Shown: positions 23,333-49,856, counted from the stretch's first letter. The stretch: DNA of 64,000 bases from Oscillospiraceae bacterium (GCA_031551485.1 JAVBNO010000019.1:7574-71573), one strand, 5' to 3'. Translations and numbers: made by a program. The notes: a model not told the origin generated them from the letters alone.

Positions 23333-23344
23333 CGGAGCAGCCCC

Positions 23345-25159: not shown

Positions 25160-26145
25160 AAAGAAAAAACGTACTCATTTTCCTTTTGCTGTTTACGCTG
25201 TTTATTGTATTGTATTATGTTTTTGCAGTGGATTTGCCCCGGATGGAAAGCCAGCGGGAGCTGATCAGCATTTCGGTGATTGTGCGGGGCGCCACCGATA
25301 ATAACTGGGCTACCGTGAAGCAGGGGATTGACCAGGCGGCGTTGGACTTACATGTGGATGTGAGCTTTATCACATTGGCCAACGAAAACGACAGGATGGA
25401 ACAGCAGTCGCTTTTGGAACGTGAAGTGGCCAACGGCGCGGACGCTGTGCTGGTGGCCGCGGCAGATTCCCAATGGATGGCGCCAGTGGTGGCTTCACTG
25501 GCGTCGCGGGTGCCGGTGGTAACCATTGAATGCCCAACCGATTCGCCCAAGGAGTCGGCGTATATCAGCGGCGATAACCGGCAAATGGGCATTATGCTGG
25601 CCGAGGAGATCATACGCAGGGGGCTGGGCCGAAGCGGCCAGCGGGTGGCAGTGATCGCCGCGGCCAACCAATGCGACAATGTACTGGAACGGCAGCAAGG
25701 CATTGTGGATACGCTGGAGATACAAAGCGAGGCCCATGTGGATGTGCTGCCGGCGGCGGATGATTTGTCCGACGTGGCCGACATTATGGAAGAAATCATT
25801 GAAAATAAAAGTGCCGATGTGGTGGTCGGGCCCGATTTGGCGGCGTTGCAGTTGGCAGCGCAGGTGCTGGGGGCGCGACAGCCGGTGCGGACGGCAGGGC
25901 CTAAAATCCTTTTGTTCGGGGTGGGGGGAACCGGTGTTATTGCACCTCATCTGGAAAAAGGCGTTGTGACGGCCACGGTGGTGCAAAATGACTTTAATAT
26001 CGGCTATTTGGGGCTGCAGGCGGCGGTGGCGGCGGTGAACGGCACCGGCGAAAAAATGGACACAACGGTGGCGTTTCATTTGATCACCCGGGAAAACATG
26101 TTTGAGCCGGACAGCCAAAAGCTGCTGTTCCCCTTTGTGCGATAG
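25156..26145 (+). CDS. Membrane-tethered periplasmic-binding-protein-fold sugar sensor (third component of the two-component system)
   Basis: ATGA overlap with the kinase stop. N-terminal TM segment (VLIFLLLFTLFIVLYYVF) followed by a PBP type-I domain. No lipobox and no transporter partner. Confidence 0.7.
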   Translation: MKRKNVLIFLLLFTLFIVLYYVFAVDLPRMESQRELISISVIVRGATDNNWATVKQGIDQAALDLHVDVSFITLANENDRMEQQSLLEREVANGADAVLVAAADSQWMAPVVASLASRVPVVTIECPTDSPKESAYISGDNRQMGIMLAEEIIRRGLGRSGQRVAVIAAANQCDNVLERQQGIVDTLEIQSEAHVDVLPAADDLSDVADIMEEIIENKSADVVVGPDLAALQLAAQVLGARQPVRTAGPKILLFGVGGTGVIAPHLEKGVVTATVVQNDFNIGYLGLQAAVAAVNGTGEKMDTTVAFHLITRENMFEPDSQKLLFPFVR

Positions 26146-26185
26146 ACGCAGCGATGAAGACAGTACAACAAAAGGCGGTGGATTT

Positions 26186-27241
26186 GTGAAACTAGTTTTT
26201 TGGAGCCGATTGCTTTGTATCATGCTTGTCATACCCGTCATCCTGTCTGGCTGCGGCTTGGCCGGACGAGGCAACACGCCGCCACCGGCGGTGACGCGCA
26301 TTAAAATTGGTGTCGCCCTCTATAAACAGGACGACACCTTTATCAGCACAATGTTTTCGTCTTTTCAGGCGGCTGCCAAAGCGTTGGAGGCCCAAAAAGG
26401 CATTACCATCACATTGAATGCGGTGGATGGCAAGGGAAGCCAAACGCTGCAAAATGAGCAAGTGGATCGCTTTTTGGTGCAGGATTATGATGTGATCTGC
26501 GTAAACATGGTGGATCGCACGGCGGCATCTGTGATCATCGACAAAGCCAAAAACGCTAACATTCCGGTGGTGTTTTTCAACAGGGAACCGGTGGAGGAGG
26601 ATATGCAGCGGTGGAGCCAGCTGTATTATGTGGGCGCGGACGCCAAACAATCGGGTGTAATGCAGGGCCAGCTGGTCATAGACTGTTACAACAACAACCC
26701 GGACGCCATTGACAAAAACGGAGATGGCAAGTTGCAGTATGTGATGCTGGAGGGAGAGCCGGGACATCAGGACGCGCTGTTGCGAACCGAGTATGCCATT
26801 AAGACGGTGGCTGCGGCGGGTATTAAAATTGAAAAACTGGCCAATGATACGGCCAACTGGCAAAGGGGACAAGCGACCACCAAAATGGCCCAATGGATTG
26901 AAAGTTTCGGCAACCAGATTGAAGTGGTGTTTTCGAACAATGACGACATGGCGCTTGGGGCAATTGACGCTTTTAAAGCGGCGGGCATTGAAGAGATGCC
27001 ACCGGTTTTCGGGGTAGATGCGACGCCGCCGGCCGTGGAGGCGGTGCGGGCCGGCCATTTGACCGGAACGGTCTTCAACGACGGAAAGAACCAGGCGAAA
27101 GTGATGTTGGATTTGTGCTATGCATTGGCGCTGCACCAAGATGCGGAAACATCGGTACCGCTGGTCGAGGATAAATATGTGTGGGTGCCTTACGCGCCCG
27201 TAACCCCGAAAACGCTGGAAACCAGCGTACCGGAGGCATAG
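26186..27241 (+). CDS. Galactose/glucose-binding lipoprotein, fourth MglB-family member (canonical pocket)
   Basis: GTG start gives the signal peptide VKLVFWSRLLCIMLVIPVILSGC (LSGC lipobox). Motifs YKQDDTF, VNMVD, FFNREP, DKNGDGKLQYVMLEGEPGHQDALLR, ANW, SNNDDMALGA, GVDA. Confidence 0.85.
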   Translation: MKLVFWSRLLCIMLVIPVILSGCGLAGRGNTPPPAVTRIKIGVALYKQDDTFISTMFSSFQAAAKALEAQKGITITLNAVDGKGSQTLQNEQVDRFLVQDYDVICVNMVDRTAASVIIDKAKNANIPVVFFNREPVEEDMQRWSQLYYVGADAKQSGVMQGQLVIDCYNNNPDAIDKNGDGKLQYVMLEGEPGHQDALLRTEYAIKTVAAAGIKIEKLANDTANWQRGQATTKMAQWIESFGNQIEVVFSNNDDMALGAIDAFKAAGIEEMPPVFGVDATPPAVEAVRAGHLTGTVFNDGKNQAKVMLDLCYALALHQDAETSVPLVEDKYVWVPYAPVTPKTLETSVPEA

Positions 27242-27277
27242 AAGTTGAGAACCATCAAAGCTGGGAGGAATGGAAAA

Positions 27278-28324
27278 ATGGTAGACAAGAGATTGTTTGG
27301 CAAAACAAGCGCCGGAGAAGAGGTGTACTTGTTCGAGATGGTGAACCAAAAGGGCGCCGTTGTGAATGTCATTGGTTATGGATGTACCGTGCAATCCATT
27401 GTTGTGCCGGACAAAAACGGCAACATGGTGGATGTCTGTCTTGGCTATAACAGCATGGAAGCCTATGAAAAAGAAGGGGCCTATATTGGCGCCGTGTGTG
27501 GCCGGGTGGCCAACCGTATTCGCAACGCATCCTTCAGCCTTGGGGGCGTGACATATCAGCTGACAGCCAATGAGGGGGCAAACCAATTGCACGGCGGTAC
27601 CAGCGGCTTCAGCCTGCGGGTATGGGACGGGTGCATTGAAGGGGAAGATGTGGTGTTCCGCCGCATTTCCGCTGATGGCGAGGACGGATTCCCGGGGAAT
27701 TTGGATGTGACGGTGCGGTACAGCTGGAGCGACGACAACCGCCTTGGGGTGCATTATACTGCCGTCAGCGATAAAGACACCCTGTTTAACCCAACCCATC
27801 ATGCCTATTTTAATCTGGCGGGAGAGGCCAGCGGGGATGTGCTTGATCAAGAGATTATGATTGCGGCCGAGGCGTATTTGCATACCGATTATGAATGGAT
27901 TGCAGACGGCGTTATCGAAACGGTAGAAGGTACACCCTTTGACTTCAGGCAGGAAAAAGCCATTGGCCGGGATATTCACGCGGATTTTGAGCAGGTGAAG
28001 AAGAGCAAAGGGTATGACCACAGTTTCATTTTGCACGGCGGACCCAAGGCGGTGGCGGCAACGGCCCGGTGCCGGGAAAACGGCATCCAGCTGGCGGTGT
28101 ATACCGATATGCCGCAAGTGCAACTTTACACCGCCAGCGGGTTTCAAAACCGGGTGGTACCGGGCAAGGGCGGCCAGCCTTACAACATGTATGCAGGCTT
28201 TTGTTTTGAGACACAGTATCCGCCGGATGCCATTAACACCCCCCAATTGACCCCAGTGCCGATTTTGAAGGCGGGAGAGCAATTTACATCGACCACTGTT
28301 TTTGCCTTTGGTCTTTCAGATTGA
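27278..28324 (+). CDS. galM: Aldose 1-epimerase (galactose mutarotase)
   Basis: GGGAGGAA ribosome-binding site. Motifs GRVANRI, LHGG, NPTHHAYFNL and FCFETQ are typical of GalM. Confidence 0.9.
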   Translation: MVDKRLFGKTSAGEEVYLFEMVNQKGAVVNVIGYGCTVQSIVVPDKNGNMVDVCLGYNSMEAYEKEGAYIGAVCGRVANRIRNASFSLGGVTYQLTANEGANQLHGGTSGFSLRVWDGCIEGEDVVFRRISADGEDGFPGNLDVTVRYSWSDDNRLGVHYTAVSDKDTLFNPTHHAYFNLAGEASGDVLDQEIMIAAEAYLHTDYEWIADGVIETVEGTPFDFRQEKAIGRDIHADFEQVKKSKGYDHSFILHGGPKAVAATARCRENGIQLAVYTDMPQVQLYTASGFQNRVVPGKGGQPYNMYAGFCFETQYPPDAINTPQLTPVPILKAGEQFTSTTVFAFGLSD

Positions 28325-30151: not shown

Positions 30152-30193
30152 TTTTCTTCTTTCCAGCAGCGAAAAATCCAGCGTATTTGAGAA

Positions 30194-30222
30194 TTGATTA
30201 TATTCCCCAAAAGGAATATAAT
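30194..30222 (+). promoter_or_regulatory. Sigma-70-type promoter for the HTH / membrane-LuxR transcription unit
   Basis: TTGATT-17 nt-TATAAT. The spacer contains the palindrome ATTCC-N6-GGAAT, a possible operator. Confidence 0.45.
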
Positions 30223-30244
30223 ATTGGTAATTGGAGGCTGCCAT

Positions 30245-30418
30245 ATGCAAACGTACATTTCAACATCAGAAGCCGCCGAAAAGTGGAGAATCCCACAACG
30301 CCGGGTGAAAGTCCTCTGTGCCCACAACAGGATTATCGGGGTTATGAGAGTGGGCAGAGTTTGGGCTATTCCCGCCAATGCCGAAAAACCCCCAGACGCG
30401 CGGAAGAAGAAGGACTGA
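30245..30418 (+). CDS. Small helix-turn-helix DNA-binding protein (57 aa)
   Basis: GGAGG ribosome-binding site. ISTSEAAEKWRIPQRRVKVLCAHNRIIGVMRVGRVWAIP is a typical short MerR/excisionase-like HTH. Lys-rich tail. Confidence 0.65.
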   Translation: MQTYISTSEAAEKWRIPQRRVKVLCAHNRIIGVMRVGRVWAIPANAEKPPDARKKKD

Positions 30419-30438
30419 ATATAGACCAAGAGGTGGGC

Positions 30439-31893
30439 ATGATGGAGGAAGAATCCAGCCATAGCCGCAATTACATATCCCATTTGCTATCATCCATCGG
30501 GAGACTTTGGAATGCACAGGAAACGCTGAATGTCAGAAACGTTCGGCTCAGCCATTTGCCATACTTTCTTGCGTTTCCGCTGGCGATGATCTTTGTCAAC
30601 ACGCAGGAGCACCTGTTTGCGGAGCAGGCGGGGCTGTTCAGCCTTAGCGGCGGATCAGTCGCCTTTATCGGGTACTGCCTCGGCGCCGCCCTGCTGTTTG
30701 TGTTCGCGCATACCGGGAACATGTCTAAGTTGTCAAAAGGATTTTCCGTTCTGGCACTGATCGGGTTCGTTTTGTGGCTCATCATGCCGGGCGGTATGCT
30801 TGGGCTGCTGTTCGCGTTTCTGTTCATGTTTGGTGTCGGCGGCTGCATGTCCAGCGGTACTTTCTCCTTTTGCTTTATTTTGAATAATGCTGAACGGTTT
30901 TGGGGGAGCGCCGCCGTCCTGCTTTTTCAGGGCCTCGCATTCGCGAACTCAGGAGGGACATTTGTGCCTTCCGCATTGATGAAGGTGTTCCTGATCATTA
31001 TAATCGCCGGCATAGTCATCTGCGCGTTTGCCTGCCGGACAGAGAGCTTTACCGAAGCGGGAAAACGGCCGAAAGGCCAGTTCGGCCCCGCCGTGTGGCT
31101 GATGTATTTTCTCTTTATGGCCTATTTCTACATCGAGTTCATCATAAGCCCTGTTCCCATTTTTCAAGGTGCCGGCGCCTTACTGTGGCGTGGCATGTTC
31201 TCGGTAACTGCGGTTTTTTTATGTGCCATTATCCAGGTATTATTGCGGCGCAGCCTTTGGACGTTGTGGAATCTGTCGTTTATCGCCGCCATCGGGTGCG
31301 TCGCTATAGCGCTTGCCAGCCAGCCGGAGGCTGCCAACGCGCTTCGCGGCCTGAAATCCGTCGGTTATTTCGCGTCATTTTACCTGATCGGGTGCGTCTC
31401 CAACCGGTTTTGCGATTTCCGCATGTTCAAGCGCCTGATATTCCTTGTGATGATGTCGTGCATCCCCATCTATATCGTGCCGGAACTCCTGTCCGGTACC
31501 GCTTACATGATACCTGCGGCAATAGGCCTGTCGAGCGCCCTGTTTGTCGTGTTCCTGATGCTGTCGCCGGCTTTCGCGAAACATCTGTTCTTCGCGGAAT
31601 GGTCGGAAAATCTGCGTATGCTCACCATGTCGGAAGCGCAGGCGCACGTCGAGAAAGCCGATTCGTTTGAAAAATTGAACCTCACACAGCGCGAAAAAGA
31701 AATAGCGGCATTGCTGCTACAGGGAATGGCAGTAAAAGAGCTTGCCGCCGAACTTGACATATCGTTTGACACAGCCAGATTTCACAACAAGAACCTGTAC
31801 AAAAAACTCGGTATCGTAAGCCGCTCGGAACTGTTTGCCCGCTTTGGTGCGGAAGCTAAAAATGCGGTTGAACAAACGCCGCGCCCCCAATAA
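30439..31893 (+). CDS. Polytopic membrane protein (~10-12 TM) with a C-terminal LuxR/FixJ-type HTH
   Basis: About 400 aa of hydrophobic helices, then LTQREKEIAALLLQGMAVKELAAELDISFDTARFHNKNLYKKLGI. The start at MMEEESS (ATG 30439, ribosome-binding site AGAGGTGGG) was chosen because the upstream part of the long ORF is occupied by the HTH gene in another frame. Confidence 0.8.
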   Translation: MMEEESSHSRNYISHLLSSIGRLWNAQETLNVRNVRLSHLPYFLAFPLAMIFVNTQEHLFAEQAGLFSLSGGSVAFIGYCLGAALLFVFAHTGNMSKLSKGFSVLALIGFVLWLIMPGGMLGLLFAFLFMFGVGGCMSSGTFSFCFILNNAERFWGSAAVLLFQGLAFANSGGTFVPSALMKVFLIIIIAGIVICAFACRTESFTEAGKRPKGQFGPAVWLMYFLFMAYFYIEFIISPVPIFQGAGALLWRGMFSVTAVFLCAIIQVLLRRSLWTLWNLSFIAAIGCVAIALASQPEAANALRGLKSVGYFASFYLIGCVSNRFCDFRMFKRLIFLVMMSCIPIYIVPELLSGTAYMIPAAIGLSSALFVVFLMLSPAFAKHLFFAEWSENLRMLTMSEAQAHVEKADSFEKLNLTQREKEIAALLLQGMAVKELAAELDISFDTARFHNKNLYKKLGIVSRSELFARFGAEAKNAVEQTPRPQ

Positions 31894-31926
31894 ACAGCAT
31901 CTCAAGATATAATCACACTGAGGATG

Positions 31927-31960
31927 ATACCCTGCCGCACCCAGGCAGGGTATTTTTTTT
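31927..31960 (+). terminator. Strong intrinsic terminator
   Basis: Stem ATACCCTGCC / GGCAGGGTAT followed by T8. Confidence 0.85.
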
Positions 31961-32034
31961 GCCCACCTACCCAAAGATGTAGCTATACAAATCGGTACTC
32001 CGCAGGTAAAAATGGAATTACGAGGAGGTGCCGT

Positions 32035-32271
32035 ATGGATATTTTGAAAAACGCTTCCGGGGAAAGCGTCACCTTGACACCGCGGGAGCGAGAGGTCTTT
32101 CAGCTTCTACTTAAAGGCATGAAGGAGAAAGAAATTGCGGGCGCGCTCCATATCAGCCGGTCGGGGGTCGGCTTCTTCACCAAAAGAATCTATAAGAAGC
32201 TCGACGTCAATTCAAAACCCGAGCTGATATTGCGCTACTACAATTTCGGCGGATCTAAAGAGGGGGAATAA
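32035..32271 (+). CDS. LuxR-family HTH 'solo' (78 aa; no receiver or ligand domain)
   Basis: GAGGAGG ribosome-binding site. LTPREREVFQLLLKGMKEKEIAGALHISRSGVGFFTKRIYKKLDV. The stop lies 2 nt before the giant ORF start. Confidence 0.8.
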   Translation: MDILKNASGESVTLTPREREVFQLLLKGMKEKEIAGALHISRSGVGFFTKRIYKKLDVNSKPELILRYYNFGGSKEGE

Positions 32272-32273
32272 TC

Positions 32274-35200
32274 GTGAAACAGTTGACAGGAGCCTGGAAC
32301 TGGATCCAAAAGCAATTCAAAGTACATACGACCAGATCATTGCTCATATCCATACCTGCCGCCGCACTCATCACAGCCGGGGTTTTATGGGCCTGCGGCA
32401 TTTTATCACTGGAATCGTGGAGCTATCTGCCTAATCGTGAATACATCCTCGCGCCGACGGAACCAGCAGAACCGCAGACACTGAATGAGCTGCTACACAG
32501 CGACATGCCTAGCATGGATACCCTTTTGCAAAACCCCTCCATTGCGCAGGAGCTGCTCAATGCCAAAACGCTAACCGACGTTGTGGATTCGCGGCTGGCC
32601 CTAAACAATCTTCATGATCTGGATGTTCAGCTTGCGGCCCAGCTTGCGGAGGATCCAGAAACCATTGATGTGGTCGATATGGAATCGGCACAGATCAATG
32701 CAGTATCGGCGAGCCATTCCGAGAAAGCTGTCATTACCTCTCTTGTGTATACACCGGGTGATCACAGCGCCGAGCAGCTTGCCACAACCAATGCCTTGCA
32801 AAATCAATACCAGACTATGGCGACGCTCAAAGCGGCCACCGGCCAGCTGCTCGCCCCCAAGGAATACGACGACCTTGTCGTGATGCCTATCGCCATGAAT
32901 ATGAAGGGTATCGTCGACGACGGTGAGGCGATGATTCACCTGCTCCCGGCGGGCGACTGGCTGCCGACAGATGGATATAAACTTTACCGCGAGGTAGACG
33001 GGCAAAGCGTACTGATCGCCGAAAATGTCGCATCGCCCAGTGCCGCGCTCGCCGGCGGCGTCGGGGGGGAACATGCTTTGAAGGTTCAGGCGCTATACAA
33101 GCAGGCCGAGCTTTCCGACGCCAAGCTCTCACAGCTCGGCATGACGGCCTCCCAGTTCCGCGAGACGGCCTACCGCATGGACACGGCGGAGAGCAAAACC
33201 CGTATCAGTGGCCAGAATAACTTTATGAGAATGCACGAACTGCTCATCACTGAGCCCAACGGCAATGAGCAGAAAATTCCCGAGACCGACCTGATGCTCG
33301 GCTCACCCGTTGTTGTAATGGGCAGGCAGGCAAACGGACTCTATCAAAGTGCCGCCGTTCAAAGCAGGATTTGGAAACAGTTCTCACTCATTCCCTCAGC
33401 GCTGCCTTCCGGCATTGACAGTATCCAGACACTGCCTAATGGCCAAGCAAAGTATAGGCTTGCCGCAGAGATCATGGCGGCGCGGCAGCAAATTTCCACC
33501 CTCAGCTTTGTGGACGATGCGTTTGCCGAGGAAGCCGGCTTTTTGATTCGCGACGATCTTTCGACGCTTGGCCTTGACGACGGAACAACGGTCACCTATC
33601 GCGTCGAAACGCCAGATCATCAAACCTCAACGCTCGAAATCGCCTACGGATATACCAATACACTGACAAAGCCGCAAGGCCTGATGGGCTACGGCATTGA
33701 CGGCAAGGTACCGCTGCGCTGGAATGCGGCGGAAAACCCGCAGGAGCGCGGCATCATCAGCGGGTATATGATCGAACGAAAACTCGACGGCGAAAGCAAG
33801 TTCACGGTGGTTAATGGGGAACCGGTCGCCATCACATACATACTCAACGAAAACGACATCTATTTCGAAACGCTGTCCTTTTACGAAGACGCCGTGGAAA
33901 ATGGAAGAACCGCCGAGTACCGCATCCGTTCTCTGGACATCTTCGGCCGCATGAGCAAGCCGTCGGATGTCATCAAGTTTAAAGTAGAGCAGGTCACCCC
34001 GCCTAACGCGCCGACGGTGAGCGCTCCGGTATTTTCCAGGGACGGCAGCAGCGCGTCCATCGGCGAAATGATAGCGGTACAAAATGCAATTAACCAAAAC
34101 AAAGGAAAAACGGGTATCGTGCTGCCGGTGTTCACCGATTCAGCGGACACTGTGCGCTTCACCATTTACCGTGCCGAAGCCGTGGGCGCGCGGCCCTTTG
34201 GTAAGCCGGTACCCATTGCCAACCTTTCGTATGACAACCCCAAACCAAAAGCGGAAGCAACTGCGTCTTCCGAGCCCTTGACGGAGCCCGTGCCGCAGGA
34301 GCAGGCGCAGACCGGGATTAAGAGGGTAAACGGCACGCAACAGACGCTGCTGCAGAACGCCGCGGCAAGCTATCCCGACCTGGTGTATTATGACGCGGAC
34401 ATCAAGGAAGGTGTCACCTACAAATACTGGGTTTCGGTTTGGGATAGCTGGAACAACGAGAGCGCGTGGTCGCAGTCGGTTTCGTATGGCGTAAGGACCG
34501 GGGCGGAACCCGCAACTCCCGCGGCGCTTAACGCCGCCATGCTCGTTCGGGAGCTCCCCGATCGCTCAAACGATCCGCCCGGATTGGTGAACGATTCCAC
34601 CGTGACGCTCGCCAATCTGGCGCAAATGCCGACAATGCCCGTTCGGAAGATCCCCGGCACCGATGCCGATACGGTCAAGCGGGCTGACGAGAGCGGTATC
34701 GCCATCGGCCATTTCATGAGTGTTGCCGGTATGCCGGATGTGATTGACAAGCAATTCGACAACCTGCCCGAGCAGAAGTATATCCATATGCTGGTGGCCG
34801 TGCGCGGCGAGGATGTGCAGCCTAACGGCGGCGCGTGGCTCCAGTGGCCCGCCTATTCCGGCGAAGGGCTGGGCGGATACGCGGTATACAGGCCCGTCTT
34901 TCCCGTAGGCGCATTACCCGATTTACAGCAGATGAGCCGCAGCGAGCTGATTCAGCTGGGCACATGGAAAAAAACGACAAGCAACACGGTTACGCAGAAT
35001 CAGCTCTTCGTCACCGGCCTGGACAAAACGCCGGGGAAAATCCATCTGTTTCTGATCTGCTTGCTTCCGGAAACGGAAGGAACGACAGCGTCGATAGAAA
35101 CTGATGGAAAAAAAGAAACCATTTTCGTTCCCGAGGGGCTGCAGCACGCGCAAGCGCCGATCTATTCCCCGCATCAAATCATTTTTGCTGAGGATTTGTA

Positions 35201-38200
35201 CTCCTATCGGGATTACTATCATGAAATCGAGGGACTTGAGTTAACGTGGGAGGCCGCGGCGGGAAATCCGGAATATGCCGTCTTCATGATTGAAGTTCCG
35301 CGAGAGTTGCCTTCATTAAGCATCGATAAATACAAACAAATGTCCGTTGAGGAGCTTTGGAACCTGGGCGGCTGGAAGCGAATGTTGACCACCTCCAAAA
35401 CAAACGCCGTGATCAGCGAAACCTCCTATTCGCATTTAGTGGATACGATGCCGATCATCGCCGTATGCGTACAGACGGGCAGTAAAAACATCACCGATAT
35501 CACGCGTGAGCAATCTGTCGACTTGAGTATTGACTTATTAACATCAAAGACTGCCCAAGAGATTCACGCGGGTTTTGTTTCGCTGGATTGGGATATTCCC
35601 GACGACCCGCAGGTGCAGTTCTACCGCGTCTACCGCGCGGAAGTGAACTCCTTCAAGACCCCGGTGGACGAATCAGCACTTGCGTGGACGCTGGTGGGGG
35701 ACCGGCTGAGTTCTCCCCAGTACACCGACCCGGTGGAGCAGAGCCGCGCACACTTCTATTACTACAAAGTCACATCGGTTTCACCTTGGGGCGTGGAGGC
35801 TGCGGCGGGAACGGTAAAACCGTTTCGCGTGCCGGCCACCAAGCCGCCGCAGACGCCTAATCTGCTTACGCCGCTGCAGAGTAAGGACGGCATAAAAGTC
35901 AACTTTGCCGCCGTGCCGTACTGCGATAAATATGTGATTTATCGGACAGCCATTACGAACGTAAGCGATGAGTATCTAACCAGGCTGAACAGCAATGTAA
36001 AGACCGCGTTATTTTCCAGCCCTTCGTTGGAGGATGAATTCCTCACCTCTCTATTGGGCAGCTCCATTAAGCTCAGCGGAAAGCCGGGGCTGCAAACACC
36101 GCTCAATGCCGCCAGCCGGTTCAAAACGCTACATTACGGAGACGCCAGCCGGGTATCGGGGCTTGATACCGGCACAAAGCTATCCACATACCAACAAATC
36201 CTCAATGACCTCGGCCCGCTTGCCCTGGCCGATTACCGCGATCTTTCGATTGAGATGATGAAACGGGTCACGTGGGAAAATATAGGTGAACTGCGCGTTG
36301 ATTATGAAACCGGCGCGGTGCTCGACCCGAATACTGGCAATCCTGTCGACCCAGTTGATCCCGCCACAGGTTTGCTCAAGCCGCTCTATTTCATTGATCC
36401 AACGCCCCAATACGGCATCATGTACTTATACACTGTGCAGGCCTGGAACGACGACGGCCTTGGTTCCACGCGGCCGGAACCCATTGAGGCGACACCAAGG
36501 CGAAGCGGGCCGTTCGATCCCATCAAGAATCTGAAAGGGGAGTGGGTGAACAAGCAGCCCCTGCTGACGTGGAACACGCCCAGGATGTCCACTCTCACGC
36601 CGGAGCGCTGCCTTGAGGAGACAGTCGGCTATATTGTCTACCGTTCCGACACCAAGAACGGCGAATACTATCAGGCAAGCCCCATGGTATTCGCGCCTAC
36701 ATGGACGGACAAAAATGCCGACCCGTATGCGTATAACTGGTATCGCATCAAGGTGTTGGATACCGGTGGCTACCTCAGCGAGTTTTCCGATCCGATACTG
36801 ATGCAAATGAATTTCGTCAGCACGGTAAAGCCCAAAATTCCGCATTTTTCGCTCGACCCTCTGCAGGCGCCGACAATTGCCTTTGAACGTAACCGCTATA
36901 CGGTCGCCTTGCGTATACCTTTTGAGGCGAGCTATACGCTTACAGGCACGGAGCCGATAGAGGTGACTGTTACGGCGGTGGATGCCAACGGATCGCCGGT
37001 GACAGGATTCACAGTGGACGCAACGGCGAAGAAGGTGCTTGCGGGGCCGGCATTGGGCGTCGGCACTTACAGCGTCACGGTCCAGGCAGAGAACGCGGCG
37101 GGCACGGACCAAAAGGATTTTGTGCTCACCGTTGGCGAACCGGAGGCGCGCACGCCACCGAAGCTGGCGACGCGCGACGATCAGTATACCTTTGTCTTTT
37201 CGCGCCCGGCCAGGCCGACGGGCACATTTGAAGAGCAGCTTGCCGCCACAGGCAGCATACCGCTGACCTGGTCGCTGGAGCCGTATGTGGAAGCCACGGG
37301 AATGCCAAGTACGGTGCCGGAAACGGTGAGCATAGATCAAAACGGCTTATTAAGCATCGAGCAGCAAACTGCCGCCGGCAGTTACTTCTTCTACGTCGTC
37401 GTCAGCAACGCTATGGGCAGCGACAAGCAGCTCATCCATATGGAAATCGCGAATGCTTCCGCGCTATCCCAAACATTCAGGCCAAGAGGGGTCTCTGTGT
37501 CAAGTGGGCGAAGTGAAGGAACGATGCCGCTGGTACAGCTTGTCGTGTCGGAACAGAAGCCAGCAGATAAAGGCGGCTATTACAGCGACAGCGCGGATTG
37601 CGCAGGCTTTACGCTGGCCGATGTCAGCCTTATCCCTTCCTCTGCAAGTGCGCCGCACTCGCCAGGCTATGTCGGCACCGCAACGCTGAACCTGGAAGGC
37701 GTGGAGCCAATCCCGGTGCACATTTACGGCGCGACCATGCAGACCACGTCGGACGGGGAAGTGATGACCGTCGGGACGGTCTATCTTGATCAGCCGGTGG
37801 TACTGAAGGCCACCGGTGTCACACTGGTCAGCATGGACATTAACCCGAAAAACGAGAAGCAGACCGTAAGCGGATATGTAAAAAGCACCAAGCCCAATCA
37901 AAACGTGATGGGCAGCACCTACGCCGTGGCGTTTACCGATGCCGTCCTGTCGCCGCAAGGCACTGTAAACGCCGCCGTCACGATACCCACGCTCAAGTAT
38001 GAACAATTCGTGTTGCACAACATCGACAACGTTCAGATCAGGCTGCCGAGCACGGCTTCAGATACGTTCTTCCTGATGGCCTCCTGCAAGCAAGTGACGA
38101 TGAAAGCGCCGCTGGAGACGCTCAGTAACGAGGGCATCACTTTTGGCGCAGGCTCGTACGGCTTTGACTTGGACGGCAAAATAAGCGGCACCATGGTGGC

Positions 38201-41200
38201 GGTGGAGCAGGAGCAATTCCTGCAACTGCTGGTGCCCGGCGGATCGGGCCTGCGCGTCAAGGCGAAGCTGACCTTCACGCACGGCGTGGCGCAGTCCGAC
38301 AGCTATATCCGTGGGCGGCTGATTCTGCCCTTCGAGCGGGCGGACGCAGTGGGCAGCGGCGTGCCTGGGGTCTATGCGGGTGTGCACCCCAAGACCAGCC
38401 TGATGGATGCGCTCGCCGATGTCAATCTGGGTGACGTACAGAGGGTTAAAGACCATCTGGCGCAGGGCGACCTTTCCATTCTCGACAGCCTCATACTCAA
38501 ATTTGGGCAAAATGTTCAGGAAAACGCGCTGCTCATCGTGCCGGGCGACAAGGCATTGCAGGATGAGTGCGGGTACGTGGACTTTAACGTCAAAAACTGG
38601 AGCGGTAAGGGCTTTATGGTGGAGTCCGCCGCGATGACGCCGACGCGCATGGCCGAGCGCGCCATGTCCATCAATCTGCAACGCAGTCAGGCCATCGTCA
38701 TCGCTCCTACCTCCGTCTCGATTGATCTCGATCGGGAGAAATTCCACCCCGTTGCGGGTGGCGGTGAGAACCCTCTCATACAGACACCCAAGGAGACGGA
38801 AAAACCATTCTGGGTCGGTTTGGTGATGAAAGGTGGTACGGTGGCGCTGCCGCCGGACTTTGTCGAGACGGCGGAGGGCGGCTCCATCCTCTTCGGCCTG
38901 GCCGAGGGCGAAATGATCTACGACCTCAACGGCTTTAGCTACCAAAACTATCTGTACAGCGATGACAAGGACGGCGTGCCGGCGCAGTTTGGAGACAGCC
39001 TGGGTGGTTTTGAGGATGTGCGCGTGTTCGACTGCCTGCTTGACATGTATGCCAACCGTGTCAACCTTGAGATCAATGCCAAGGTCAGGCTGGATCTATT
39101 CAACAACAACTGGGTCAATGCCAGGCTCTACACCAACAAGGAGAACAATGACGACGGCCAAAAAGGATCGTTCCTCTGCTCCGTCGCGCCCACGGTGATT
39201 GAAGGCGCCAACGGTGCGGGCGTCGATCTGAACATCGACGGCGGGTTTTTAAAGCCCGACGGGCTACACATTAACGGCAATATAATGGTGGACACCCCAG
39301 AAGTGCAAACCGACTCCGAAGAGCCGCTTGCCTTTATCGACATGATCGTGCCGTCCAAAGCCGAAATGACCAATCGCGAGAATAACAGGGAAAATATATG
39401 GGCCAACGTTACGCTCGACAAGCCGACCCCCATTACCTTTCAAGGCTTTTCCATGGAAATTCGGGCACTGGATTTGGAATACTCGGAAGCCAAGACAATT
39501 GAGCAGAAAAAAGCGGCCGGCACCGTCATCGCCCTTCCGCAGAGCGGCTATCCGACCTATTTATCGCTGCATGGGTCGACAGTATTGTCGGAAAACATAG
39601 CAATGGGGCAAGACACGACCGACACCGTCAAACTGGAATGCCGAAAATCGGACATTGTCCCGGTTGTGCTGTACGAAGAGTGCGCTTCGGTGCTGGACGC
39701 GAATTTCGACGACTGCATCAGCGTCAAGGGCAAACTGGTACCCAAGCTCACCGGGTCGGACTTGACCGTTCCAGGCGGCGCGAGTAATATGAGCGCCAAC
39801 ACAAAGGACACTGCCCCACATATCATGCTATTGTCCGCCGGAACTGCGCCCGCCGTCCCGGCCCTGCCGCAAATCCCCGCGCTCCCCAACGCCGAGAGCA
39901 TTTTGAAGGATGCGAAGGCCACTGCCGAAGAAAAGCTTGCGGCCTACAAAAAAGCGCTGAAAGACGAGATTGACCAGTACAAGAAAGCGGTTGAGGCAGA
40001 GCTGGCCAAATACAAGGACATGACGGAGGCGGAGGCGAAGAAGTATCGCGAAGCGGCCGAAAAACAGCTTGAGGAATATAAAGGCAAAGCTGTCGACGAG
40101 CTGGAAAAATACCTGGACATCACCCAGGAGGAACTTAAACAATACAAGGAAGAGCTGGAAAAAGAGCTCGGCGAGTACATCGATTTGGGCAAGCTTGGTG
40201 CGGGGCTCATTGAGTTTAACACAGAGCAGTTGGATCTGAACTACCTCAGCCAGCTCAAGTCGCTGCCGGTTGTGACCAAAACGCGCTTTGGGTATGACAT
40301 GGACAACGAGCGTTGCTATTTCGCTGTGGGCCTTATGCCCAAGAATAAGCCAGGAAGCAACAAGGAGACTATAGCAATCAACTTTGGCGCAGGCGATATC
40401 CGCAATTTCACCGGCATCGTCACCTATAACATGGTCGTAAAGCGCGACGCGCAGGGCAGACATGAGTTCCCTGCCCAGCCGGGAGAAATCGCCGCATTCA
40501 TCAAGAACATGTCGGTTTACAGGGAATCGGGCAGTACCTTCGCCGCCGGCATCCGGGGCACAATGAAAATCATCGGCTTTTGCGAGATCCGCGAGCTGTA
40601 CTTCGGCTTTGAGAAAGGCCCTATCATTAACGCAGACGGCGGTATCTACATTCCGCTGGATGTGGCAGGGATGATCAGTGGCGACGGCATGGAAAAGGTC
40701 GGTACGGTCGCTATCCTTTACGACCACCCCAACCGCTATTTCTCCTTCAGCATGACGCTTGACGGCATCGATCTAGTCGCGGCGAAAGTCAGCGGCAGTA
40801 TGGGATTTGAGTTCAGCCCGCACATGTTCGGCGTCTCGCTGGGCTATCCGGAGACCATGGCCGGCAACATTTCCATCTTCCGGTTCGGTGTTGGCATCGG
40901 GTTCCGCATCGACAGCGAGGAAGGCAACTACATCAGAGCCAAGCTGGAGGTCGGACTGCAAAAAGATGTGAAGGTCGCCATCGTCTACCTCAGCGGATAC
41001 CTCTACGCCGGAGCCGATGGAGGGTATTATTGGGGTGGCACGGATAAAGGCAATGGATTTTATCTGACTATTTACCTGAAAGGCGGCATAAAGGGCGGCA
41101 TTATGCTGGGCGAAGCTCGCTGGGATATCATCAAACTGATGCTCGACGCGCGGGGTACCATTAGCTCGCTTCCCCCGAGCAAAGACTGGAATCTGCACTG

Positions 41201-41303
41201 CTCGGCCAAGGTCAGCTACTGTCTCGACTTGTTCCTCTTCTCAATCGACGGCTCGGTCGAGGCCTCGTTTGATACGACAATAGCGGCGCCGCAGATAGTG
41301 TAA
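32274..41303 (+). CDS. Giant (3,009 aa) N-terminally anchored modular protein: FN3-like and Ig-like repeats, a large unassigned region, an 11-mer helical array and a beta-rich C-terminal domain
   Basis: Uninterrupted 9,030-nt ORF with a GTG start after AAAGAGGGGG. One N-terminal TM segment (SLLISIPAAALITAGVLWACGIL). Six FN3-type signature pairs (x-Y-R 'YRVYRAE'-like strand plus 'YxYxVxAxD..G..S' strand). Two Ig-like modules (36870-37450). Confidence 0.9.
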   Translation: MKQLTGAWNWIQKQFKVHTTRSLLISIPAAALITAGVLWACGILSLESWSYLPNREYILAPTEPAEPQTLNELLHSDMPSMDTLLQNPSIAQELLNAKTLTDVVDSRLALNNLHDLDVQLAAQLAEDPETIDVVDMESAQINAVSASHSEKAVITSLVYTPGDHSAEQLATTNALQNQYQTMATLKAATGQLLAPKEYDDLVVMPIAMNMKGIVDDGEAMIHLLPAGDWLPTDGYKLYREVDGQSVLIAENVASPSAALAGGVGGEHALKVQALYKQAELSDAKLSQLGMTASQFRETAYRMDTAESKTRISGQNNFMRMHELLITEPNGNEQKIPETDLMLGSPVVVMGRQANGLYQSAAVQSRIWKQFSLIPSALPSGIDSIQTLPNGQAKYRLAAEIMAARQQISTLSFVDDAFAEEAGFLIRDDLSTLGLDDGTTVTYRVETPDHQTSTLEIAYGYTNTLTKPQGLMGYGIDGKVPLRWNAAENPQERGIISGYMIERKLDGESKFTVVNGEPVAITYILNENDIYFETLSFYEDAVENGRTAEYRIRSLDIFGRMSKPSDVIKFKVEQVTPPNAPTVSAPVFSRDGSSASIGEMIAVQNAINQNKGKTGIVLPVFTDSADTVRFTIYRAEAVGARPFGKPVPIANLSYDNPKPKAEATASSEPLTEPVPQEQAQTGIKRVNGTQQTLLQNAAASYPDLVYYDADIKEGVTYKYWVSVWDSWNNESAWSQSVSYGVRTGAEPATPAALNAAMLVRELPDRSNDPPGLVNDSTVTLANLAQMPTMPVRKIPGTDADTVKRADESGIAIGHFMSVAGMPDVIDKQFDNLPEQKYIHMLVAVRGEDVQPNGGAWLQWPAYSGEGLGGYAVYRPVFPVGALPDLQQMSRSELIQLGTWKKTTSNTVTQNQLFVTGLDKTPGKIHLFLICLLPETEGTTASIETDGKKETIFVPEGLQHAQAPIYSPHQIIFAEDLYSYRDYYHEIEGLELTWEAAAGNPEYAVFMIEVPRELPSLSIDKYKQMSVEELWNLGGWKRMLTTSKTNAVISETSYSHLVDTMPIIAVCVQTGSKNITDITREQSVDLSIDLLTSKTAQEIHAGFVSLDWDIPDDPQVQFYRVYRAEVNSFKTPVDESALAWTLVGDRLSSPQYTDPVEQSRAHFYYYKVTSVSPWGVEAAAGTVKPFRVPATKPPQTPNLLTPLQSKDGIKVNFAAVPYCDKYVIYRTAITNVSDEYLTRLNSNVKTALFSSPSLEDEFLTSLLGSSIKLSGKPGLQTPLNAASRFKTLHYGDASRVSGLDTGTKLSTYQQILNDLGPLALADYRDLSIEMMKRVTWENIGELRVDYETGAVLDPNTGNPVDPVDPATGLLKPLYFIDPTPQYGIMYLYTVQAWNDDGLGSTRPEPIEATPRRSGPFDPIKNLKGEWVNKQPLLTWNTPRMSTLTPERCLEETVGYIVYRSDTKNGEYYQASPMVFAPTWTDKNADPYAYNWYRIKVLDTGGYLSEFSDPILMQMNFVSTVKPKIPHFSLDPLQAPTIAFERNRYTVALRIPFEASYTLTGTEPIEVTVTAVDANGSPVTGFTVDATAKKVLAGPALGVGTYSVTVQAENAAGTDQKDFVLTVGEPEARTPPKLATRDDQYTFVFSRPARPTGTFEEQLAATGSIPLTWSLEPYVEATGMPSTVPETVSIDQNGLLSIEQQTAAGSYFFYVVVSNAMGSDKQLIHMEIANASALSQTFRPRGVSVSSGRSEGTMPLVQLVVSEQKPADKGGYYSDSADCAGFTLADVSLIPSSASAPHSPGYVGTATLNLEGVEPIPVHIYGATMQTTSDGEVMTVGTVYLDQPVVLKATGVTLVSMDINPKNEKQTVSGYVKSTKPNQNVMGSTYAVAFTDAVLSPQGTVNAAVTIPTLKYEQFVLHNIDNVQIRLPSTASDTFFLMASCKQVTMKAPLETLSNEGITFGAGSYGFDLDGKISGTMVAVEQEQFLQLLVPGGSGLRVKAKLTFTHGVAQSDSYIRGRLILPFERADAVGSGVPGVYAGVHPKTSLMDALADVNLGDVQRVKDHLAQGDLSILDSLILKFGQNVQENALLIVPGDKALQDECGYVDFNVKNWSGKGFMVESAAMTPTRMAERAMSINLQRSQAIVIAPTSVSIDLDREKFHPVAGGGENPLIQTPKETEKPFWVGLVMKGGTVALPPDFVETAEGGSILFGLAEGEMIYDLNGFSYQNYLYSDDKDGVPAQFGDSLGGFEDVRVFDCLLDMYANRVNLEINAKVRLDLFNNNWVNARLYTNKENNDDGQKGSFLCSVAPTVIEGANGAGVDLNIDGGFLKPDGLHINGNIMVDTPEVQTDSEEPLAFIDMIVPSKAEMTNRENNRENIWANVTLDKPTPITFQGFSMEIRALDLEYSEAKTIEQKKAAGTVIALPQSGYPTYLSLHGSTVLSENIAMGQDTTDTVKLECRKSDIVPVVLYEECASVLDANFDDCISVKGKLVPKLTGSDLTVPGGASNMSANTKDTAPHIMLLSAGTAPAVPALPQIPALPNAESILKDAKATAEEKLAAYKKALKDEIDQYKKAVEAELAKYKDMTEAEAKKYREAAEKQLEEYKGKAVDELEKYLDITQEELKQYKEELEKELGEYIDLGKLGAGLIEFNTEQLDLNYLSQLKSLPVVTKTRFGYDMDNERCYFAVGLMPKNKPGSNKETIAINFGAGDIRNFTGIVTYNMVVKRDAQGRHEFPAQPGEIAAFIKNMSVYRESGSTFAAGIRGTMKIIGFCEIRELYFGFEKGPIINADGGIYIPLDVAGMISGDGMEKVGTVAILYDHPNRYFSFSMTLDGIDLVAAKVSGSMGFEFSPHMFGVSLGYPETMAGNISIFRFGVGIGFRIDSEEGNYIRAKLEVGLQKDVKVAIVYLSGYLYAGADGGYYWGGTDKGNGFYLTIYLKGGIKGGIMLGEARWDIIKLMLDARGTISSLPPSKDWNLHCSAKVSYCLDLFLFSIDGSVEASFDTTIAAPQIV
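39945..40178 (+). repeat. Seven exact 33-nt (11-codon) periods marked by eight Tyr codons inside the giant ORF
   Basis: TAC/TAT codons fall at 39945, 39978, 40011, 40044, 40077, 40110, 40143 and 40176. Units are Y-KKALKDEIDQ / Y-KKAVEAELAK / Y-KDMTEAEAKK / Y-REAAEKQLEE / Y-KGKAVDELEK / Y-LDITQEELKQ / Y-KEELEKELGE / Y. Confidence 0.95.
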
Positions 41304-48159: not shown

Positions 48160-49749
48160 CTATTCTTCGGTCAGCACGTTTTCCTCTTTGCGATAGATGG
48201 ACATCAGGAAGAGAACGACGGCCATGCCCACGTAACCAAGCCAAACCTGAGGCGACATGTTGATGCCGAAGGAGGAAGAATGGATGATGCCGAAGAAGGA
48301 GAGAGCGGCGCAGATGACGGCGTAGATGGAGGCGCGTTTGTAGTTTCTATCCAAGATGTAGATGGCAATGGCCGCCAGCATCATAGCGATAAGAATGTCG
48401 CCCTGGCCCAACCGCAGCCAACCCAGGAAGGGCACGCCGTTTTGGGACAGAAGGGCGTTGCTGACCACAACAGAACCGGGGCCGCCGTTCAGAAGAGAAA
48501 CGGACACCGCCTGGCCGGCCTCGGCCAGCGCCGCGTTAATGGCGCCCACAGCCGAGTTTACTTTCAGGGCTACAATGCTGCCGATAAAAGGCATAAAGGA
48601 AAAGATAATGGCGGGGTAGTGGTGCTTTTTCGCCGTTTGGAAGGCCTGGGTGCCAATCACGATGCCGATATAAACCAAAATCGGCAACAGGGCGACCAGC
48701 GGAATGACGGCGGAAACCAGGCGAAGCAGGCCGGTAAAGGCAAGAATGATAATGGCGATACCGGTGAGCAGCGCATAGCCAATGCGGGCGCCGGTGGCTT
48801 TCCAGCCGGGATGGCCGATGTAAATGATGGTCGGGAACGGGCTGCCCAGCAGGGAACCGATAATGGTCATGGCAGCGGGAACGGCCATCGCTTTGGCGAC
48901 CGGATATTTTTCACCGGCAGCGTCGGCACTTTCCAGGTTATCAAGGCTTTCTAAAAAGTCGTAAATGGCAAGAGGGATGGCGGCGGGCAGGAAGGGGGCG
49001 ATGACGGAGAAACCTTTGCCCAGCAGGCCGACTGCCAGATAGGGCAGCGGAATGTTAAACGCCTGAACAGCAGAAGCAACGGCGTCGGGCTTCAGGTAGC
49101 CGGTGGCCCAGGCAATAATGGTGCCGATGAGAATGGCGAAAGCGCCGGCGGGCATGCCAAAGGGCATTTTTTTGCCGGAAAGCCAGCCCACCAACAGAAT
49201 GGCCAGGCAGACGAGGCCGATGTAAGGCACCGTGAAAACTTCGCCGATGGGGTTACCGGAAATGAGGGTGATGGCCAAACCGGCCAGGGCGCCCAACATG
49301 GCGGAGCGGGGGATGTATTTTTTGAGGGTAGGGCCGACAAAAGCGCCTATCATCATCACAATGCCCTGAATCAGGTTCCAGGCAATGCCGGCGGCCCAGG
49401 CGGTAAGCCAATCCTGGGTGGCGATGTAAACCGGCAGGATGACGCCCAAAGCGACCGCAAAATAGTGGGGTACGCTTAAGCCGTAAGGCATGGCCGTCAC
49501 ATCGCTACGGTTTTCGCGCTTGGAAAGGCTTTTGGCCATAATGGCCAGGATGATGTTGCCCACGCCAATGGAAATGGCGACACCGGGCACAATTTTGCCG
49601 TAAACCATGTCGGCAGGCATGGCGATGGCGAATGCCAGCAGGCCAATGGCCGTTAAGAAATTGGCGAGGGAGTTGGAAAACAGACCGAAAAATCCGTTGA
49701 TGTCGCCGGAGACCCACCAGGGGGTGCCGGCAGTCGATTTACTACTCAT
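48160..49749 (-). CDS. Polytopic permease, NCS2-superfamily-like (purine/nucleobase-type), paralog A
   Basis: The ATG at 49749 follows GAGGAGG. About 13 TM segments. Shares the motifs DINGFFGLF.N..AN, P.G.SVPH and IYIGHPGWK..GAR.GY with paralog B. Confidence 0.6.
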   Translation of the reverse strand: MSSKSTAGTPWWVSGDINGFFGLFSNSLANFLTAIGLLAFAIAMPADMVYGKIVPGVAISIGVGNIILAIMAKSLSKRENRSDVTAMPYGLSVPHYFAVALGVILPVYIATQDWLTAWAAGIAWNLIQGIVMMIGAFVGPTLKKYIPRSAMLGALAGLAITLISGNPIGEVFTVPYIGLVCLAILLVGWLSGKKMPFGMPAGAFAILIGTIIAWATGYLKPDAVASAVQAFNIPLPYLAVGLLGKGFSVIAPFLPAAIPLAIYDFLESLDNLESADAAGEKYPVAKAMAVPAAMTIIGSLLGSPFPTIIYIGHPGWKATGARIGYALLTGIAIIILAFTGLLRLVSAVIPLVALLPILVYIGIVIGTQAFQTAKKHHYPAIIFSFMPFIGSIVALKVNSAVGAINAALAEAGQAVSVSLLNGGPGSVVVSNALLSQNGVPFLGWLRLGQGDILIAMMLAAIAIYILDRNYKRASIYAVICAALSFFGIIHSSSFGINMSPQVWLGYVGMAVVLFLMSIYRKEENVLTEE

Positions 49750-49856
49750 CGTGTTAATTTCCTCCTCGAAATATGATTTTTGGATACAAAAAACCAGGCC
49801 CTGGCTTATTGCCACATTGACCAGGGCGGTTTGACAAAGAAAAGAGGGGGCGCTGT

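Follow-up and report, generated by a model that had tools for sequence, protein, structure and literature searches.

Giant hypothetical surface proteins with stalks of Ig-like and FN3-like domains are common in metagenomes. Gram-negative adhesins of the RTX/LapA type are retained at their N-terminus, extended by Ig-like modules, and carry ligand-binding modules near the C-terminus, and the Omnitrophota reportedly encode giant N-terminally anchored surface proteins that are known only from metagenomes, are beta-rich and mostly cannot be annotated. In the fibrillar adhesins of Gram-positive bacteria, the order is the opposite, with an N-terminal adhesive domain and a C-terminal anchor (Monzon et al. 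2021, PMC8286594). Here, we analyzed a 64,000-nucleotide (nt) stretch of DNA from an Oscillospiraceae bacterium (GCA_031551485.1, JAVBNO010000019.1:7574-71573; hereafter the window, with positions counted from its first letter), which contains a 9,030-nt gene for a protein of 3,009 amino acids (aa). The stalk-and-head type of protein is already known; what is new here is the reversed polarity, the highly divergent FN3-like stalk, and an orphan head of ~1,050 aa.

Like the fibrillar adhesins surveyed by Monzon et al. (PMC8286594), the giant protein is a very long single chain with an Ig/FN3-type stalk of variable module number and a distinct, non-repeat tip. Unlike them, it has its presumed anchor at the N-terminus and its head at the C-terminus, its stalk is too divergent for Pfam fn3, and its ~1,050-aa head is much larger than typical adhesive domains (PMC8286594). 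That the polarity is reversed had been proposed in the initial annotation of this DNA, and the order reported in that survey supports it. When the operational definition of Monzon and Bateman is applied, the tandem Ig/FN3 stalk is found, but no recognized adhesive domain (there is no Pfam or NCBIfam match outside the Ig region) and no recognized anchor (LPXTG, SLH, LysM or CHU_C). The giant protein would work like a fibrillar adhesin yet lacks two of the three defining features. With the RTX/LapA adhesins it would share the N-retained, C-terminal-head geometry. Unlike them, it is devoid of RTX repeats, a type I secretion signal, a retention module and a LapG site, and its hosts are monoderm, with a helix in the cytoplasmic membrane as the presumed anchor. 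It also differs from the Omnitrophota giants, which belong to another phylum and are far larger, and to which no sequence relationship was detected.

The giant open reading frame (ORF) is the sole long ORF in its span, where the next-longest reaches at most 304 aa. Its GTG start lies 2 nt past the stop of an upstream GerE/LuxR ORF, an AGGGGG sequence resembling a Shine-Dalgarno ribosome-binding site is placed 7 nt ahead of it, and the encoded N-terminus (MKxxK...) can be aligned residue for residue with the N-termini of homologs. The GC content of the ORF (0.52-0.59) is the same as that of the flanking sequence, and no tandem repeats are present at the DNA level. Over its entire length, the protein is collinear with 34 database proteins at 40-55% identity; the homologs range from 2,500 to 3,470 aa, and ~30 of them come from independent assemblies. 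Collinearity of this kind rules out a chimera or a chance open frame, and the giant ORF is a real, intact gene. The uninterrupted frame and its start, as originally described, are therefore borne out by the ORF call, the ribosome-binding sequence and the N-terminal alignment, and the accompanying worry about an assembly chimera is answered by the independent assemblies.

Relatives were found at 46 loci when one genome per GTDB species was searched, all in metagenome-assembled genomes (MAGs) of Clostridia/Bacillota. The host lineages include Oscillospiraceae, Christensenella, Saccharofermentanales, Caldicoprobacterales, Acetivibrionales and Lachnospiraceae, and many of the MAGs originate from anaerobic digesters or bioreactors. 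Two bins carry two paralogous giant genes each, namely Firmicutes bacterium ADurb.Bin248 (loci L009 and L027) and Clostridia bacterium SBF912LR0HQ0057 (L028 and L029). At some loci (L006/L021, L029, L038, L044 and L048), the gene is split or frameshifted into at least two ORFs; L048 has a tandem pair of copies, both heavily fragmented. The best explanation for these data is that the giant gene belongs to a previously undescribed family of giant surface proteins from monoderm anaerobic Clostridia.

Hydropathy, family alignments, profile comparisons and AlphaFold2 (AF2) models divide the predicted protein as follows, from the N-terminus to the C-terminus:

32274-41303, + strand: giant ORF, 9,030 nt, GTG start, 3,009 codons, uninterrupted
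32337-32405, + strand (aa 22-44): sole hydrophobic segment by hydropathy and AF2, read as a signal anchor, N-in
32424-32648, + strand (aa 51-125): predicted juxtamembrane helical domain, highly conserved (column conservation 0.67-0.81)
32649-32798, + strand (aa 126-175): variable linker, predicted to be disordered, conservation ~0.3, many insertion columns
32871-33668, + strand (aa 200-465): predicted split FN3-like sandwich with a ~170-aa helical insertion, YKLYR at aa 235
33669-33989, + strand (aa 466-572): FN3-like module 1, from AF2 sandwich and Foldseek FN3 matches
33993-34508, + strand (aa 574-745): FN3-like module 2 with a disordered insertion, from AF2 and Foldseek
34782-35078, + strand (aa 837-935): FN3-like module 3 with a short helical insertion, from AF2 and Foldseek
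35196-35558, + strand (aa ~975-1095): extra, putative diverged duplicate of module 3, family gap fraction 0.4-0.9
35559-35843, + strand (aa 1096-1190): FN3-like module 4, YRVYR and YYYKV motifs
35856-36509, + strand (aa 1195-1412): FN3-like module 5 with a large insertion, YVIYR and YLYTV motifs, weak hhalign matches only
36525-36809, + strand (aa 1418-1512): FN3-like module 6, hhalign to module 1 at E 4e-6 over 82 columns
36861-37448, + strand (aa 1530-1622 and 1630-1725): two tandem Ig-like domains, from profile comparison with the PDB
37587-39764, + strand (aa 1772-2497): domain D, conserved orphan, nearly all beta, non-repetitive
39849-39887, + strand (aa 2526-2538): Pro/Ala linker PAVPALPQIPALP, part of a sub-clade-specific insertion
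39915-40178, + strand (aa 2548-2635): hendecad helix, eight 11-residue units ending in Tyr, hydrophobic spacing 4-4-3
40185-41300, + strand (aa 2638-3009): domain F, Gly/aromatic beta domain, long hairpins with strands of up to 18 residues

Domains D and F make up the head. An exhaustive HMMER search of 1.84 billion cluster representatives with a D+F profile returned 122 proteins, all of which are members of the giant family or fragments of them; in these matches D and F always co-occur, at the C-terminus. When domain F alone was used to search a database of 5.8 billion proteins, solely fragments of the same family were found. The distal ~1,100 aa have no match in Pfam, NCBIfam, PHROGs, PADLOC or PDB sequence profiles, and comparison of the whole protein with Pfam, NCBIfam, PHROGs, PADLOC and (by phmmer) the PDB gave only sub-threshold Ig-like and coiled-coil noise. 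Family profiles built from the full length, from D+F and from the N-terminus matched only Ig domains in the PDB. Because all 122 matches belong to one family and no family database or PDB match was seen, D+F is a genuine orphan module. It is strongly conserved within the family, with column identities of 0.55-0.85, invariant polar residues in the motifs GEMIYDLNGFNYQTYLY, DCLLDLYANRVNLEINAEV, YSHPDRYFSF and EYSPRLFGVY.GYPET, and GEMIYDLNG, DLYANRVNLEINAEV and YSHPDRYF as invariant stretches, and self-comparison with hhalign detected no internal repeats.

The structure of D+F was predicted with AF2 from 24 sequences after removal of the inter-domain insertion, which gives the layout typical of the family; predicted local distance difference test (pLDDT) and predicted TM (pTM) scores were 73 and 0.46, and the first ~260 residues reach a pLDDT of 85-90. 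D and F were used jointly, not singly, as the query for fold searches. The model is nearly all beta, with consecutive up-and-down hairpins and long meanders. Foldseek searches of BFVD returned nothing with a TM-score above 0.24. Against the PDB, ten matches were obtained at E<=1e-3, mainly to the ApoB100 beta-belt (3.2e-5) and LptD (4.6e-5), along with one trimeric SlpA outer-membrane protein, and PapC usher and porin barrels followed at E 1.3e-3 to 1.3e-2. TM-scores were 0.05-0.19 (a single OmpT porin chain reached a TMt of 0.28), and root-mean-square deviations (rmsd) were 19-46 Å. Identity with the ApoB, LptD or porin fold was rejected, as the TM-score is ~0.1 and the resemblance is that of a long antiparallel sheet. 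Long antiparallel up-and-down meanders are thus a feature that D+F has in common with the ApoB100 beta-belt, LptD and AsmA/TamB; unlike these, D+F superposes at a TM-score of only ~0.1, has no AsmA/DUF490 Pfam match, and comes from a host without an outer membrane. An N-terminal signal anchor is also found in TamB-like proteins.

These results bear on several statements in the initial annotation. It had described the distal ~1,250 aa as matching no family that could be named, which holds for ~1,100 aa across Pfam, NCBIfam, PHROGs, PADLOC, PDB profiles and Foldseek searches of the PDB and BFVD. The ~800-aa beta-rich region without nameable repeats is predicted by AF2 to be beta, and self-comparison finds no repeats in it; likewise, the 370-aa Gly/aromatic C-terminal beta domain is recovered as the conserved block F with long AF2 hairpins. 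Two of the outcomes that were to overturn this picture did not occur: the distal region is predicted to form beta meanders, not further FN3 or Ig repeats, and no homology to a characterized adhesin or S-layer family emerged from the database scans.

The head is preceded by the stalk. A Y-x-(V/I/L)-Y-R motif occurs seven times in the giant protein (aa 235, 498, 629, 869, 1117, 1220 and 1453). Pfam fn3 gave no match to it at E<=1, and the protein stays below the gathering score of the fn3 HMM (PF00041). Alignment of the putative FN3 modules by hhalign to a five-sequence FN3 reference was weak and no better than that to an Ig control; the FN3-like assignment is therefore based on predicted structure. 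An AF2 model of aa 1-935 (pLDDT 75.6) contains beta-sandwiches at aa 468-570, 615-739 and 837-932; the multiple sequence alignments behind the AF2 models are shallow (22-24 sequences), and modules 4-6 fall outside the modelled part. Foldseek comparison of this model with the PDB gave 123 matches at E<=1e-3, mostly FN3 tandems (best 5.6e-8). Among the tandems matched at a probability of 1.00 are titin A-band, contactins, gp130 and fibronectin, and the single Fn3 domain 8ot5_D was matched at TMt 0.78. These models indicate that the N-terminal modules adopt the seven-strand FN3 sandwich fold.

Sequence comparisons add some detail for individual modules. Module 1 (aa 471-526) has marginal profile matches to titin/MyBP-C Fn3 domains, and module 4 aligns to the FN3 reference with P 2e-4 and to module 6 with E 8e-4. 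Thus, of the six FN3-like modules originally listed, 1-3 are backed by AF2 and Foldseek and 4-6 by motif and hhalign only, while Pfam fn3 remains silent and a seventh module had been missed. The latter lies within the ~420 aa that had been reported to have no motif: this region contains the YKLYR module, predicted by AF2 to be split, with strands at aa 207-252 and 424-457 on either side of inserted helices at aa 255-421. An extra module, missing in most relatives, follows module 3 (35093-35558, aa ~940-1095). It scores 65 against module 3 at the protein level, compared with 27 +/- 4 for shuffled sequences (z ~9), and has no DNA similarity to it; judged from its sequence, it is an old, diverged duplicate.

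The two Ig-like domains were already recognized in the initial annotation. They are confirmed by a match of the family profile to titin/Dscam Ig tandems in the PDB (E 1.5e-18) and by alignment of Ig1 to Ig2 (hhalign E 2e-11); hhalign detected no relation between the Ig pair and the FN3-like modules. At the equivalent position, homologs have Pfam matches to PKD, He_PIG or Big_13 in varying numbers, and the family alignment contains 315 insertion columns in this region, with Ig copy number varying. Two distant members have canonical Pfam fn3 tandems in place of the Ig pair (P0106 aa 1489-1783, E 9e-34; P0140 aa 1329-1402, E 9e-16), and the pre-head segment is therefore an exchangeable spacer. 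Varying Ig number, module duplication and replacement of Ig by fn3 are the behavior expected of a spacer.

A Kyte-Doolittle scan of the giant protein has a single peak above 1.7, at aa 22-47, AF2 places a helix at aa 19-40 over the same segment, and the hydropathy scan of the whole protein revealed no second transmembrane (TM) segment, in keeping with the lone N-terminal TM segment described before. A basic tail that is conserved in the family (W..QFRTHT.RS) precedes the hydrophobic segment. Because the segment is 22-23 residues long and has basic residues on its N-terminal side, we infer from the sequence that the protein is anchored in the membrane by its N-terminus; by the positive-inside rule, the segment would be a signal anchor oriented N-in. 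The proposal of N-terminal anchoring is thus upheld as regards the segment and its basic flank, and stays conditional as regards retention, given that cleavage by signal peptidase is possible. A further suggestion, that LWAC-G might be an atypical lipobox, has to be dropped: Cys41 is replaced by A, F, S, L, G, R or P in homologs, and the lipoprotein idea was rejected on these grounds. Following the hydrophobic segment, the conserved juxtamembrane domain is modelled by AF2 as helices at aa 70-125 (pLDDT 86-91), and the variable linker has a pLDDT below 50 at aa 129-168, after which a long helix comes next. A search of the 5.8-billion-protein database with the N-terminal 130 aa found only fragments of the giant family.

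Other routes to the surface and other protein classes were also considered. There is no LPXTG-type signal at the C-terminus, only LPSTA (aa 1924) and LAATG (aa 1656) in the interior, and the protein ends in ...SFDTTIAAPQIV with no hydrophobic tail, which does not correspond to a sortase substrate. Pfam and motif scans of the giant protein were negative for SLH, dockerin/cohesin and RHS domains, as well as for the YD-repeat pattern and toxin domains that define RHS and polymorphic toxins. Together with hydropathy, these scans agree with the earlier statement that LPXTG, SLH, dockerin/cohesin, RHS/YD and a C-terminal TM segment are absent. No AsmA/DUF490 match was found in Pfam, and no TamB, AsmA or Vps13 protein was among the top Foldseek structures. 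An outer-membrane beta-barrel (LptD, porin or usher) was rejected because superposition is poor and the Clostridia that carry the gene are monoderm. Sortase substrate, lipoprotein, RHS toxin, AsmA/TamB protein and outer-membrane barrel were each tested on their own defining features, and none fits.

Between D and F, the window protein carries the Pro/Ala linker and the hendecad helix, in which Tyr recurs eight times at exact 11-residue spacing (aa 2558-2635). Both had been noted in the initial annotation and are present here, though as a sub-clade insertion and not as part of the family core. The family alignment has a gap fraction of 0.8-0.9 over the helix, and linker and array are missing in ~26 of the 28 full-length members, where D and F are separated by ~7 residues. 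Homologs P0006 and P0009 share a D-F insertion of ~140 aa, and a few members carry unrelated low-complexity linkers instead, so that the junction accepts insertions of 0-150 residues. The 11-residue array is therefore a real, sub-clade embellishment at a flexible hinge. It scores 18.8 bits with Pfam Apolipoprotein (PF01442), against a gathering cut-off of 90, and only the 11-residue periodicity is common to the helix and apolipoprotein repeats.

Directly upstream of the giant gene are two LuxR-type genes and a hairpin:

30439-31893, + strand: putative multi-TM LuxR regulator, 484 aa, ~10 hydrophobic segments, C-terminal GerE helix-turn-helix (HTH)
31926-31954, + strand: strong hairpin resembling a terminator (11-bp stem, 6 of the pairs GC, then a T-run), directly after the 484-aa gene
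32035-32271, + strand: small HTH-only LuxR/GerE protein, GerE E 4.6e-16, start placed at Met38

The 484-aa regulator has a C-terminal LuxR HTH (GerE Pfam E 1e-13) and ten Kyte-Doolittle peaks above 1.5 in a simple scan; its start was placed at MMEEE, which fits homologs of 480-492 aa (the mechanical ORF is 30187-31893). The small LuxR protein was called mechanically as a 115-aa ORF (31924-32271). Because the hairpin falls within the first 31 nt of that ORF, and because homologs in the same position at L001, L007, L025, L030 and L047 are 77-80 aa long, it is probably a 78-aa protein starting at 32035. Its stop lies 2 nt before the giant-gene GTG, so the two are probably co-translated, and the arrangement argues for a single transcription unit. 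Neither gene is thus the simple LuxR solo that it had been taken for, one being a regulator with ~10 predicted TM segments and the other HTH-only. Of the 25 evaluable loci, those with enough flanking sequence, 10 have an ortholog of the 484-aa regulator next to the giant gene (phmmer E 1e-70 to 1e-105); in two of these 10, the regulator is downstream and on the opposite strand. When the LuxR-LuxR-giant arrangement is checked for conservation, as had been proposed, the link to the multi-TM LuxR is recovered but is not general, and this regulator is conserved as a partner of the giant gene without being obligatory. No other conserved neighbors were seen in the compared loci, where flanking genes vary from locus to locus and no sortase, secretion-system or glycosylation genes travel with the giant gene.

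LuxR regulators with 10-12 TM segments at the N-terminus and a C-terminal LuxR HTH have been described in Coriobacteriia (Dong et al. 2022, PMC9734109). Compared by architecture, the 484-aa regulator is similar, with ~10 putative TM segments, a GerE HTH, and a gene beside its presumed target. Unlike the Coriobacteriia regulators, whose genes lie beside those for catechol- or drug-metabolizing reductases (PMC9734109), it occurs in Clostridia, beside a giant surface-protein gene, and is paired with an HTH-only LuxR.

Taken as a whole, we consider it an evenly balanced proposition that the giant protein is an N-terminally anchored, fibrillar adhesin-like surface protein with a novel head. Its short basic N-terminus would stay in the cytoplasm, and the 22-23-residue segment would hold the protein in the cytoplasmic membrane, followed by the conserved juxtamembrane helical domain and the flexible linker. 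The stalk, in which two Ig domains follow seven or eight predicted FN3-like sandwiches, several of which carry insertions, would bring the protein through and past the wall; the reach of more than 50 nm given in the initial annotation is an estimate. At the tip, the conserved, non-repetitive, beta-rich D+F head of ~1,050 residues would be the functional end, which most likely binds a ligand presented by another cell or by an insoluble substrate in the digester community. In the window protein and a few relatives, the ~88-residue hendecad helix may serve as an extra spacer or oligomerization rod between D and F. Translation of the giant gene would here be coupled to that of the small LuxR gene, and in ~40% of loci, expression of the giant gene appears to be tied to a ~10-TM one-component LuxR and a small HTH-only LuxR.

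Several points weigh against this interpretation. No adhesive domain, ligand or binding activity was identified for the giant protein, so the term adhesin refers to its architecture. The D+F model is of moderate confidence, and the lack of a structural match could partly be model error. Many members have LWA at positions -3 to -1, and the hydrophobic segment could serve as the h-region in a long signal peptide of the Gram-positive kind. In addition, the split copies indicate either that the gene is dispensable in some lineages or that the MAGs contain assembly or frameshift errors. These split copies, along with the extra module at aa ~940-1095 and the 140-aa insertion, both missing in most relatives, might also be taken as signs that the ORF itself is an artefact (an assembly chimera, pseudogene read-through or a non-coding frame). 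This is effectively refuted by full-length collinearity with ~30 independent assemblies: the extra module is a diverged duplicate with no DNA-level repeat, the insertion is common to P0006 and P0009, GC content equals that of the flanks, and a ribosome-binding sequence and a family-typical N-terminus are present. It is unlikely, though a good deal less remote, that the hydrophobic segment belongs to a Sec signal peptide that is cleaved off, in which case a mature protein of ~2,960 aa would be released, or held on the wall non-covalently by the domain at aa 51-125. The layout of N-region and h-region is indeed like that of long Gram-positive signal peptides, the -3 and -1 residues are small or aliphatic in many members, AF2 shows disorder at aa 44-62 directly past the helix, and the subsequent 75 residues are among the best conserved in the protein, as would be expected of a true attachment module. 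However, a hydrophobic run of 22-23 residues exceeds a typical h-region, the -1 residue is not uniformly small (A, L, G, S, V, F or I across the family), and Pfam detects no SLH, LysM, CWB or SH3b wall-binding domain.

For the head, two functions other than ligand binding were weighed. It is quite unlikely that D+F acts on lipid or membrane, its large amphipathic sheets and, in this sub-clade, the 11/3 helix docking onto or entering the membrane of a prey or partner cell or a lipidic substrate, with contact-dependent pore formation, lipid capture or a fusion-like contact between cells as the outcome. The idea comes from the fact that the only PDB Foldseek matches at E<=1e-3 are lipid-contacting beta-sheet proteins (ApoB100, LptD and SlpA), and from the F hairpins of 17-18 residues with alternating hydrophobic and Gly/polar faces and plentiful conserved Gly and aromatic residues; the inserted helix, with its apolipoprotein-type 11-residue period and weak Pfam Apolipoprotein match, points the same way. 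Yet TM-scores are 0.05-0.19 at an rmsd of 20-46 Å, long meanders inflate Foldseek E-values, soluble beta-sandwiches would show alternating amphipathic strands just as well, the 11-residue helix is missing in most family members, and there is no match to AsmA/TamB/DUF490, MACPF, aerolysin or another pore-former family. In its boldest form, which we regard as a long shot, D+F would be a new membrane- or lipid-engaging beta-sheet machine on a long stalk, combining amphipathic sheets with an 11/3 amphipathic helix after the alpha/beta logic of apolipoproteins, gripping or inserting into a partner-cell envelope or a hydrophobic substrate in anaerobic digesters, and switched on by the membrane-embedded LuxR. 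Similarly improbable is a head that is a surface-displayed enzyme of novel fold, for instance a polysaccharide or cell-wall hydrolase or lyase, with a stalk that only presents it. The invariant polar motifs (the four listed first above, among them GEMIYDLNGFNYQTYLY and DCLLDLYANRVNLEINAEV) would fit a catalytic or a metal- or sugar-binding site, relatives come from polymer-degrading digester communities, and the giant gene of the window lies beside sugar ABC transporter and aldose epimerase genes. Against this, no catalytic family or motif is found in Pfam, NCBIfam or PDB profiles, and there is no conserved neighborhood of carbohydrate-binding module, dockerin or carbohydrate-active enzyme genes, as the neighbors differ at every locus.

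About 2,600 of the 3,009 residues of the giant protein are invisible to current family databases, and for the D+F head, 15 billion proteins yield no detectable relative beyond ~120 sequence clusters, nor do the PDB and BFVD contain a structural analogue. The giant protein therefore points to a surface structure conserved within, and specific to, a lineage of uncultured Clostridia. These organisms dominate anaerobic digesters, and their contacts with cells and substrates (syntrophy, flocculation, polymer attachment) are poorly understood. The fibrillar-adhesin concept is extended to a presumed N-anchored layout with a C-terminal head in monoderms, and putative multi-TM LuxR regulators are linked to a giant surface-protein gene outside Coriobacteriia. 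D and F are well-defined targets for structural genomics, and the size, conservation and isolation of D+F, together with the multi-TM LuxR link, make them worthwhile for structural and functional study.

A phage or mobile origin of the giant gene was rejected: no relatives are present on IMG/VR viral contigs, and the flanks in the window are ordinary metabolic genes. At the locus of the closest full-length homolog, P0002 (L001 3300-6833), the LuxR-LuxR-giant block has genes for a phage-type integrase and a Mutator-type transposase as neighbors, a hint that the block may be mobile in that genome; L001 is the sole related locus so placed, and the window has no such arrangement. Upstream of the LuxR genes in the window, positions 21716-28324 encode an AraC-HTH response regulator, a Cache-domain histidine kinase, a periplasmic sugar-binding protein and an aldose 1-epimerase, and look like a sugar-sensing and uptake cluster. 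An aldose epimerase gene also follows the giant gene at L024, possibly by coincidence. Downstream, in the vicinity of genes for AllG and CoA-ligase-type proteins, two large ORFs on the - strand (48160-49902, 580 aa; 50559-52076, 505 aa) remained without a match in Pfam at E<=1e-5. At the other end of the window (8780-13141, + strand), the gene for a 987-aa CoA enzyme activase, in which a BcrAD/BadFG-type ATPase and DUF2229 are joined, precedes one for another DUF2229-like protein, an arrangement typical of strict anaerobes.

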